A DNA stretch of 64,000 bases from the NCBI RefSeq assembly GCF_036365525.1, contig NC_090419.1, positions 11,718,001 through 11,782,000 of the forward strand. Direction: 5' to 3'. The notes beneath the pieces are model-generated. The model was not told the origin of the DNA and did no database searches. It worked only from the letters and a program-made list of their open reading frames with translations. Position numbers and translations under genes: made by a program. Numbering within the stretch: the stretch's first letter is position 1; each line of letters starts with the position of its first letter. The stretch comes from Heterodontus francisci. Taxonomy: Eukaryota. Of this stretch, positions 12,813 to 15,800 are shown piece by piece.

Positions 12813-15800
12813 GTAAGTGCGCCTGGAAGAATGCTGAAAGGGATGCGAAGCACAGAACCGGAGCGGTCAACAGGTAGAGGGGGATCTGCAGGGAGAGTGC
12901 AGGATCCGCATGGATAGAGTAGGGAATCCACAGGCAGAGAGCATGGTGCTCGAGCGAGTCGGAGATCCACAGGGGGGGACGCAATCCCCAGGGAGCGAGG
13001 GGGATCCACAGTGCAAGAGAGGAATTCCACAGGGACAGACGGAATCCACAAGAGGCTGATGCACATGGACAGGGGGAGAGAGAAAGAGGGAGGGACTCCG
13101 TATTGGGACATACACAGAGTGATGGATCCATAGGGACAGAGTGTGATCGAGTTGGAGAGATGATTGTTTTTCACAAGGAGCAAGAAGATTATCCGGGAGC
13201 GGGGAAGAGAAAAGGGAGTGTGCAACGGTGAAGAAATACGGAGAGTTCCTTCAAGATATTGAGCAGTAGATGGACAGGAATTGGGGATGAGCACGGAGAG
13301 GGAAGTGTTCAGGCGGAGGTGAGGACAGAGGGAGGATATGTCTACAGATAGCAAGAATCTGCCAGGAACTGGAGATCCACAGAGGGACGGGAGATCTGCA
13401 GGGTGTTTACAGGAGTCACGGTAGTTCGACAGAGGGAGCTGCAGCTGGTGATTCAGGATTCCAGTGATCCACAAGGAATGGACTGGGGGATGGGGGGGCA
13501 CAGAGATCGGGAATTTCCGAGACCTGGGGAATCTCCAGGGACAGAGTGTCCGATGGATGGGAGGATCAATGCGGAATGGAGGGGATCCACGGGTTACTGC
13601 AGCGGGATGTGTTGCTGCCCACACACCCTTCTTCTTCCAGGACCAGAACGACTGTCGAAAACATTGCCTCTTCATCTGTAAGTAATCACCTGTTCTTCCC
13701 CCTTTAGCGTGAGTGTATTTCAATCCATATTGGCCAGGCCGGTGTGCAGATCGGTAACGCTTGCTGGGAGCTGTATTGCCTGGAGCATGGGATCCAGCCG
13801 GATGGACAGACGCCCAGTGACCAGAGCATCGGGGGTGGCGATGACTCCTTCAACACATTCTTCAGTGAGACGGGGGCGGGTAAACACGTTCCCCGAGCCG
13901 TGTTTATAGATCTGGAGCCCACTGTGGTTGGTAAGAGGAGTGATTGTTGATGGGTTGCTCAGTCAGTGCTCTCAATACACTCATTGAAACATGGCCTGAA
14001 TGTTGTGTGCTCATGAGTTTAACTTCTCCTTCCCTGTCCCCAGATGAGGTCCGTACCGGCACCTACCGACAGCTCTTTCACCCCGAGCAGCTCATCACCG
14101 GCAAGGAGGATGCGGCTAATAACTATGCACGGGGTCACTGCTCCATCGGCAAAGAGATTGTGGATCTGGTCTTGGATCGCATACGGAAGCTGGTAGGTTC
14201 TGTTAGTTTGGTGTGCCGAGATTTCCCGCCTCGCATTCCCAACGATAATAATTCGGGATGAATCAGTTATCACTTCATTTCGGGGGATGATCGTACCCAC
14301 AGAATCACAAAAATTACACCGATTTCACAAGAATTATAGAGTGGTTATAAATGGAGGACTTAATTCTCAATCTGGAAACAAATTAGCGTATTTTAGAATT
14401 CTTTCTCAAGCAATTTTGATTTCCTGTGCAACCAGCAATTCGCAGTCCCTGGCAGGCCCTGCACCCCCTTCCCAACTCCAGGCCTCGAACATAAATCCTC
14501 TCCGAGCTGCTTCCCCCTTGTTCCCCACTGCCTCCTCCACAAGGTCCATTACTGCATCCCCCAGGCTCCCACTGCTCCATCTCACCAGCTCCCATTGCGC
14601 CCTCTCAGCAGGAGGCTCCTGCTCCATTTTAATGGGTTGTGCGTGTGTTATTTACCCACAGGCTGACCAGTGTACAGGACTGCAGGGTTTCCTCATCTTC
14701 CACAGTTTCGGGGGTGGGACCGGCTCAGGTTTTACTTCCCTCCTGATGGAGAGACTCTCCGTCGACTACGGCAAGAAATCCAAACTGGAGTTTTCCGTTT
14801 ACCCCGCGCCGCAGATTTCCACCGCGGTGGTCGAGCCGTACAACGCCGTACTCGTCACCCACTGCACCCTCGAGCACTCTGACTGCGCCTTCATGGTGGA
14901 CAATGAGGCCATTTACGACATATGTCGGCGTAACCTTGACATTGAGCGACCGACCTACACCAACCTCAACCGTCTCATTGGACAGGTAGTGTCATCCATC
15001 ACGGCGTCGCTGCGGTTCGACGGTGCCCTCAACGTGGACCTGACTGAGTTCCAAACCAACCTGGTCCCCTATCCCCGAATTCACTTCCCACTGGTAACCT
15101 TCGCGCCCACTATTTCGGCCGAGAAGGCTTACCACGAGCAACTGTCGGTGGCGCAGATCACCAACGCATGCTTTGAGCCAGCCAACCAGATGGTGAAGTG
15201 CGACCCCCGCCAGGGCAAGTACATGGCGTGCTGCATGCTGTACCGAGGAGACGTGGTGCCCAAGGATGTCAACGCCTCCATCGCCACCATCAAGAGCAAG
15301 CGCTCGATCCAGTTTGTTGATTGGTGCCCGACTGGGTTCAAGGTAAGTGTGGCTTTTGTGTCCAATACATGGGGCCCTGGGGAAACATGGATTGTGGGAA
15401 TCGCATCTCATAATGAGCAACACTCTTCAGTCCCAGTCAAAAGTTGTTTCTCCATTCAGGAAGAGTAATGGAACAGACCTTCCCCATTCCTGGCCCAAAG
15501 ACCAGCTCCCTCTGAGGGTTGAGGTGGAATGCTCTCAGATTCACTCCTTGACTGAAGCCTGAATGTCCCAGGGTAAGTCCTGCCTTGAAACCAGGAAAGG
15601 CCTTCCTGACAACTCAAGGCCTCTTTGGAGAAGCTGTAATTAAGAAGGAATTCGCTCCTGAATGCAGCCTCATTTCCATTGGAAACTGAAGGTTTAAACC
15701 TGGGAGAGGTGCCCAGTGAATAACCAGAGCTGGGTGTACAGAGAAAGACACAAACTCGCTCAGAAACGTAACTTTCTGAAAAGTAAGCGGCGGTCAACAG

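Follow-up and report, generated by a model that had tools for sequence, protein, structure and literature searches.

A tandem array of divergent elasmobranch alpha-tubulin genes in which one repeated member mostly encodes glutamine at residue 40

A tandem array of alpha-tubulin genes in the Heterodontus francisci genome, in which one of two alternating gene types mostly encodes Gln at residue 40, raises the question of whether an acetyl-lysine mimic has been written into a vertebrate tubulin or whether a modifiable charge has been lost for other reasons. There is continuing argument over whether K40Q mimics acetylation and over how much acetylation of K40 matters, and the matched K40 and Q40 genes of this vertebrate array, together with S40 counterparts in skates, form a set of natural constructs on which the effect of K40Q could be tested.

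On the plus strand of the analysed window (64,000 nucleotides of NC_090419.1, positions 11,718,001 to 11,782,000) lie eight whole alpha-tubulin genes, of types A and B in turn; the window also holds two half genes (Table 1). The whole genes were modelled with five coding exons apiece, every junction being GT-AG and the frame free of internal stops, and the products are identified as alpha-tubulins by the MREC start, the GGGTGSG motif and a length of about 450 residues (450 in A and 451 in B). Their exon 4 is 92-93% identical to that of canonical alpha-tubulins, their C-termini end in glutamates without Tyr, and A and B proteins differ from each other at 20-21 residues. The array extends beyond the eight whole genes of the window to approximately 11.702-11.812 Mb, where 16 whole genes (nine A and seven B) are all intact, and a second cluster at 11.96-12.05 Mb adds nine complete genes of this subfamily, each with K40 and none with a Q partner; these gene counts are lower bounds, as the search of the 6.0-Gb genome scored 51 tubulin candidates, of which 48 were listed. 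A genes are spaced 12.5-13.9 kb apart in the plus arm, which defines the A-B unit. The array is inverted around a centre at about 5.6-7.4 kb of the window (within 4060-8883), where the two half genes point outward and a short tandem repeat lies near 6650-6890. Each arm has one K40 A gene, and the loop haplotype is the same in both.

Table 1. Alpha-tubulin genes and associated features in the window (window coordinates; residues by protein position).
Feature	Position	Strand	Description
Half gene, B type	4060..5567	-	Exons 4-5 only; at array inversion centre
Half gene, mosaic	7376..8883	+	Limited to exons 4-5; exon 4 mosaic between A and B, with R264G; inversion centre
Exon 1 start codon of second K40 A gene	215..217	-	I38, K40, T41; gene leaves the window at its left end
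Gene A1	12810..16158	+	450 aa; T36, Q40, S41, Q290; C-terminus EEEE without Tyr
A1 proximal promoter and exon 1	12710..12812	+	CCAAT 12710, TATAAAT 12745, ATG/GT 12810; putative, from motif matches
A1 coding exons	12810-12812, 13708-13930, 14044-14192, 14662-15342, 15862-16158	+	Gene model
A1 codon 40	13822..13824	+	CAG (Gln)
A1 codon 290	15154..15156	+	CAG (Gln); position counted from exon 4 start
Gene B1	18397..21596	+	451 aa; K40 (18917), S41, E290
Gene A2	26654..30806	+	450 aa; I38, K40 (27681), T41, Q290
Gene B2	33052..36252	+	451 aa; K40 (33572)
Gene A3	40220..43585	+	450 aa; Q40 (41248), Q290
Gene B3	45821..49023	+	451 aa; K40 (46341)
Gene A4	52966..56326	+	450 aa; Q40 (53978), Q290
Gene B4	58571..61768	+	451 aa; K40 (59091), N101K

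A sequence-only reading of the window had reported CAG at codon 40 of A1, A3 and A4, AAG in A2 and B1-B4, and further variation of the loop among copies (T36 in A1; I38 and T41 in A2), and our gene models agree on every one of these residues. Over the full array, seven of the nine A genes encode Q40 and two K40, and all seven B genes encode K40. The figure of seven excludes two additional Q40 copies on the unplaced contig C1300 (27,294 bases), which we did not treat as independent since the contig is 100% identical to NC_090419.1:11751019-11778312 and is thus a redundant assembly copy. The codon is not a single base-call error, because it recurs in seven of nine A genes and these seven differ among themselves at 21 other coding sites. 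At the sequence level, therefore, Gln does occupy position 40 within a K40 loop, as expected of an encoded acetyl-K40 mimic.

The differences among the seven Q40 copies fall at 20 synonymous sites and one replacement site, indicating purifying selection (binomial P about 4e-12 against neutrality, a statistic that ignores shared ancestry), and the seven B genes likewise differ at 15 silent and two replacement sites. The dN/dS ratio is 0.20 for A versus B, as compared with 0.08-0.19 for other subfamily pairs and 0.01-0.09 for canonical pairs. All eight window genes carry TATAAAT 65 bases and CCAAT 100 bases before the ATG. Intact and constrained copies with such promoter motifs point to the Q40 genes being working genes. 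The promoters of A and B are homologous (77-79% identical over 338 bases) and, given this homology and the strict alternation within the A-B unit, co-expression of A and B is plausible from the sequence.

The array belongs, on the evidence of its sequence, to a divergent alpha-tubulin subfamily that lacks the C-terminal Tyr and that was found only in elasmobranchs in protein searches and cluster look-ups (the main cluster has 36 members, of which 15 were listed). Its proteins, annotated by NCBI as 'tubulin alpha chain-like' in Amblyraja, Leucoraja, Rhinoraja, Chiloscyllium, Carcharodon, Heptranchias, Heterodontus and others, share with the array the diagnostic residues C108, S109, C193, Q309, T389, L393, K397, L413, Q419 and D420, and in skates they are multi-copy, as in the array. 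They form a single clade, separate from every other alpha-tubulin sampled, with an SH-aLRT of 100 in a quick protein tree of 58 chosen rows that was computed with the loop removed and without bootstrap, and that has short internal branches. Orthology with TUBA8, TUBA4A or TUBA3 was not supported, as proteins bearing these labels fall outside the elasmobranch clade of this tree. A tree of this genome's own genes also separates the subfamily from the canonical genes (100/100) and unites A and B in one clade (99/100) nested within the neighbouring cluster. Seventeen positions distinguish the subfamily from the canonical genes of this genome, seven of them within 386-420 and one at 427, a region that we take to be helices H11-H12, the motor- and MAP-binding surface. 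The corresponding changes in exon 5 of the array genes (in A1, the last exon of Table 1), namely E386L/F, A389T, H393L, L397K, M413L, S419Q, E420D and the absent Tyr, are common to sharks, skates and rays, and their effect on motor or MAP binding could exceed that of residue 40. When exon 4 was searched against longer proteins, most of the returns were fused multi-tubulin models. No description of the array or the subfamily was found in listings of the literature that cover mainly open-access papers, and a paper on sperm (PMC11856307) holds nothing on tubulin.

Residue 40 is labile in this subfamily. Among 43 elasmobranch subfamily proteins from other loci and species (52 sorted by a loose rule, less eight without residue 40 and one mis-sorted coral protein) it is Lys in 33, Ser in six, Arg in four and Gln in none, and Gln is not the preferred replacement across lineages. 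In a wider and biased set of 192 scored alpha-tubulins, Gln is found in five of the 53 proteins without K40. Within the subfamily, Q40 was seen only in the array; skates encode S40 or L40, and a faster-evolving branch has R40 or K40. All six skate S40 genes also encode Q290, and their proteins group in the quick tree not with the shark A genes but with a K40/E290 protein of Rhinoraja (SH-aLRT 96). As this skate branch is separate from the A genes, K40 was lost separately in several elasmobranch branches, to different residues. Two fused skate gene models contain extra exon-2 copies with L40 and S40, and it is from these two models that S40 genes in skates would be taken to alternate with K40 genes. 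Within the present genome, ten other alpha-tubulins with full models comprise eight with K40 and two with R40, and four more, seen in exon 2 only, three with R40 and one with W40. A separate elasmobranch paralogue (contig C7:12427508; P0334 cluster) combines Trp40 with Q290 in sharks, rays and skates. The fast-evolving branch of the subfamily (contig C463:234718; P0299, P0306-P0310, P0317) has a strongly basic loop with Arg or Lys at 40, several added Arg, and K290.

K40 is the ancestral state. At codons 40-41 every Q40 copy reads CAG AGC, and all of them sit in one tandem array, so that a single mutation is the simplest reading and a count of seven separate events was rejected; the seven copies likely descend from one AAG-to-CAG change that was multiplied as the A-B unit duplicated, and by conversion. 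A tract of B-like sequence across codons 127-187 of A2, whose intron 3 is also longer, and the mosaic half gene on the plus strand are seen alongside this account. Gln is one of six amino acids that lie one base from AAG. In the loop, both K40 A genes read ATT GAC AAG ACC, and one of them differs from A4 at residues 38, 40 and 41 only. When A is compared with B, the neighbouring cluster and the canonical genes together, only two changes are confined to A, viz., K40Q in the Q40 copies and E290Q in all A genes including the two with K40, residue 290 being Glu in each of the other groups. Four of the six residues that vary among the nine A genes fall within the 12-residue loop, a clustering that fits loose constraint and diversifying pressure equally. 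R123 is kept in all array genes, as are E55, K60 and H283.

The loss of K40 and E290Q are not tightly coupled, because the K40 A genes carry Q290 and 18 of 53 proteins without K40 keep E290. The 192 scored alpha-tubulins, whose clades are not independent, comprise 111 with K40 and E290, 28 with K40 and another residue at 290, 18 without K40 but with E290, and 35 with neither. A general coupling of the two residues across alpha-tubulins was accordingly rejected, and the supplement of a tubulin database yielded no entry for E290 or K40, nor did PMC12154965 yield a pertinent passage.

We consider it moderately probable that the array records a tolerated or mildly favoured loss of modifiable charge, by way of one AAG-to-CAG mutation spread by unit duplication, the change removing a modifiable positive charge from a loop that the elasmobranch subfamily alters often. 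K40 is also reported to be methylated (PMC12577689). On chemical grounds a Q40 chain would be neither acetylated nor methylated, so that the earlier claim of a chain that is non-acetylatable at 40 and has lost its positive charge is upheld, and together K40Q and E290Q would remove one positive and one negative charge. Both residues have been implicated in side-to-side protofilament contacts: passages of the respective papers describe a restriction of the loop and weakening of lateral electrostatics by acetylation (PMC6535015), and a pairing of alpha R123 with E290 of the neighbouring subunit (PMC10519996), the last being one passage about one simulation. A K40-E55-H283 salt-bridge model has also been described (PMC10707541). 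The A chain, in which both confined changes neutralise a charge, would then make slightly weaker side-to-side alpha-alpha contacts. As this is the direction proposed for acetylation, the A chain may resemble acetylated tubulin in charge only, and work like it even if selection never shaped it as a mimic. That the replacement is Gln is likely incidental, and its effect likely small. The effect may even be negligible, because editing K40 changed little or nothing in P. berghei, Toxoplasma and C. elegans. Small-scale effects on doublets are described in PMC11006419, and K40 acetylation is dispensable in flies (PMC5769580). A likely role of the array is to supply a single specialised cell type with large amounts of tubulin. 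Germ cells would be our guess for that cell type, given the testis isotypes that lack a C-terminal Tyr.

A less probable but possible reading is that K40Q is in effect a neutral change: the loop is under loose constraint, and the substitution was carried along by duplication and homogenisation of the A-B unit and has no effect on microtubules. The concentration of A-gene variation in the loop and the retention of K40 by two A copies agree with it, as do reports, in the passages describing them, that restoring Lys (Q40K) in P. berghei had no effect on growth or infectivity, one line gliding slightly faster (PMC12795560), and that in C. elegans, where one of nine alpha-tubulins has K40, K40Q or K40R had little influence (PMC11216746). 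Set against this are the strong purifying selection on the remainder of the protein, the fact that both A-confined changes neutralise charge, and the occurrence of S40 with Q290 on a separate skate branch. Some selection for loss of charge is favoured by the skate parallel, and near-neutrality by the A genes with K40 and Q290, the many E290 proteins without K40 and the weak phenotypes elsewhere.

We regard as improbable the proposal of the sequence-only reading that selection established Q40 as a lasting mimic of acetyl-lysine, and that the A-B unit supplies a mimic and a regulatable K40 chain at a set ratio as a partly hard-wired code. The strict alternation of A and B under homologous promoters speaks for it, as does a loop that is otherwise near-canonical around Q40, and two sources, in their relevant passages, offer some support from other organisms: an earlier study of Toxoplasma recovered K40Q and not K40R (as summarised in PMC10707541), and K40Q caused mild branching and regrowth defects in C. 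elegans (PMC11216746). The idea of a mimic nevertheless finds no support in the comparison with relatives, which have S, R or L at 40 in the subfamily and R40 and W40 elsewhere in the genome, and Gln is a poor acetyl-lysine surrogate in some proteins, as a passage on ubiquitin describes (PMC9481602). The 'selected mimic plus regulatable partner' is weak because residue 40 is labile, because reversion of the Plasmodium Q40 is almost free of phenotype and because a clingfish also has Q40. The pairing of A and B as a designed code fares no better: it is accounted for by unit duplication, two of nine units have a K40 A gene, and the nine neighbouring K40 genes have no Q partner. Furthermore, A and B differ at enough residues that residue 40 need not be why both were kept. 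Nor does Q40 compensate for loss of the acetylating enzyme, as is conceivable for rodent Plasmodium, because the acetyltransferase domain (PF05301) is still in the genome, as two exon-sized matches on contig C29, both above cut-off (matches to the domain and not to a whole gene).

It is very improbable that the Q40 copies arose through misassembly, represent a private variant or are pseudogenes without expression: although C1300 attests to redundancy in the assembly here, the 14 sequencing runs listed by a search held only 0.05-0.11 of the gene's words, none reaching half, and no H. francisci Q40 protein is among the 15 cluster members listed, seven distinct copies have intact frames, splice sites, TATA and CCAAT motifs and a 20:1 excess of silent change.

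An encoded Gln at this position is not new as a concept, since a natural Q40 has been published, proposed as an acetyl mimic and tested in Plasmodium. In the passages describing it (PMC12795560), Q40 occurs in alpha1 and alpha2 of P. berghei and in alpha2 of P. falciparum, the male-gametocyte isoform, Gln being encoded as in the shark A genes, and in P. falciparum K40 and Q40 isoforms coexist with an acetyltransferase, as here. Plasmodium differs in being a protist with an otherwise divergent loop, in the loss of alpha-TAT by rodent parasites, unlike the shark genome with its domain, and in that those passages mention no tandem array. Another case is the clingfish Gouania willdenowi, a vertebrate with several near-identical Q40 records (e.g. 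XP_028300583.1; six NCBI records on one contig), Q40 being present in 14 of 15 listed members and one lacking its N-terminus (P0376, P0419-P0432). In contrast to the shark A genes, its tubulins have a more diverged loop and keep both E290 and the C-terminal Tyr, and they lie outside the elasmobranch clade, as judged by C-terminal residues; from these sequences the clingfish appears to be an independent vertebrate case. Absence of a modification site by encoding is a known feature of vertebrate isotypes, as in TUBA8, which has no K40, and in TUBA4A and the chicken and trout testis isotypes, which encode no C-terminal Tyr; for bird TUBA4A we also saw this C-terminus in sequence. K40R, the state of several tubulins noted above, is the laboratory non-acetyl control.

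The Q40 array is thus real and was correctly described, but it is less singular than first claimed, being an instance of a known isotype-level loss of tubulin modification sites. Less expected is the subfamily itself, with its altered H11-H12 surface and no C-terminal Tyr, and this undescribed elasmobranch group and the parallel at K40 and E290 are worth following. A bolder view, which we consider improbable, is that sharks and skates amplified an alpha-tubulin family of their own in which one member per array repeatedly and independently shed the K40 and E290 charges (Q40/Q290 in the shark, S40/Q290 in rajid skates), so that, mixed with charged partners, it would give microtubules with pre-loosened protofilament contacts and no tyrosination cycle. 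If true, the repeated shedding would amount to a vertebrate tubulin code written in gene copy number, and would provide a natural test of whether loss of charge alone explains the effect of K40 acetylation.

Some minor features of the locus may be added. N101K is present in two B copies, B4 (exon 3, window 59313-59461) and the copy at NC_090419.1:11789453; residue 101 presumably lies near the nucleotide and the longitudinal interface, and these copies are possibly defective. A second exon-1-like ATG/GT precedes some B genes (17999, 32654, 45426), about 400 bases upstream of the TATA-bearing one, and is possibly an alternative first exon or a relic. By Pfam matches, the array is flanked by a MiT/TFE-family transcription factor, CCDC115/Vma22, a rhodopsin-family receptor and a C2H2 zinc-finger exon (11.67-11.68 Mb and about 11.908 Mb among the sites), and several LINE-type open frames of up to 1252 aa lie between the two tubulin clusters.
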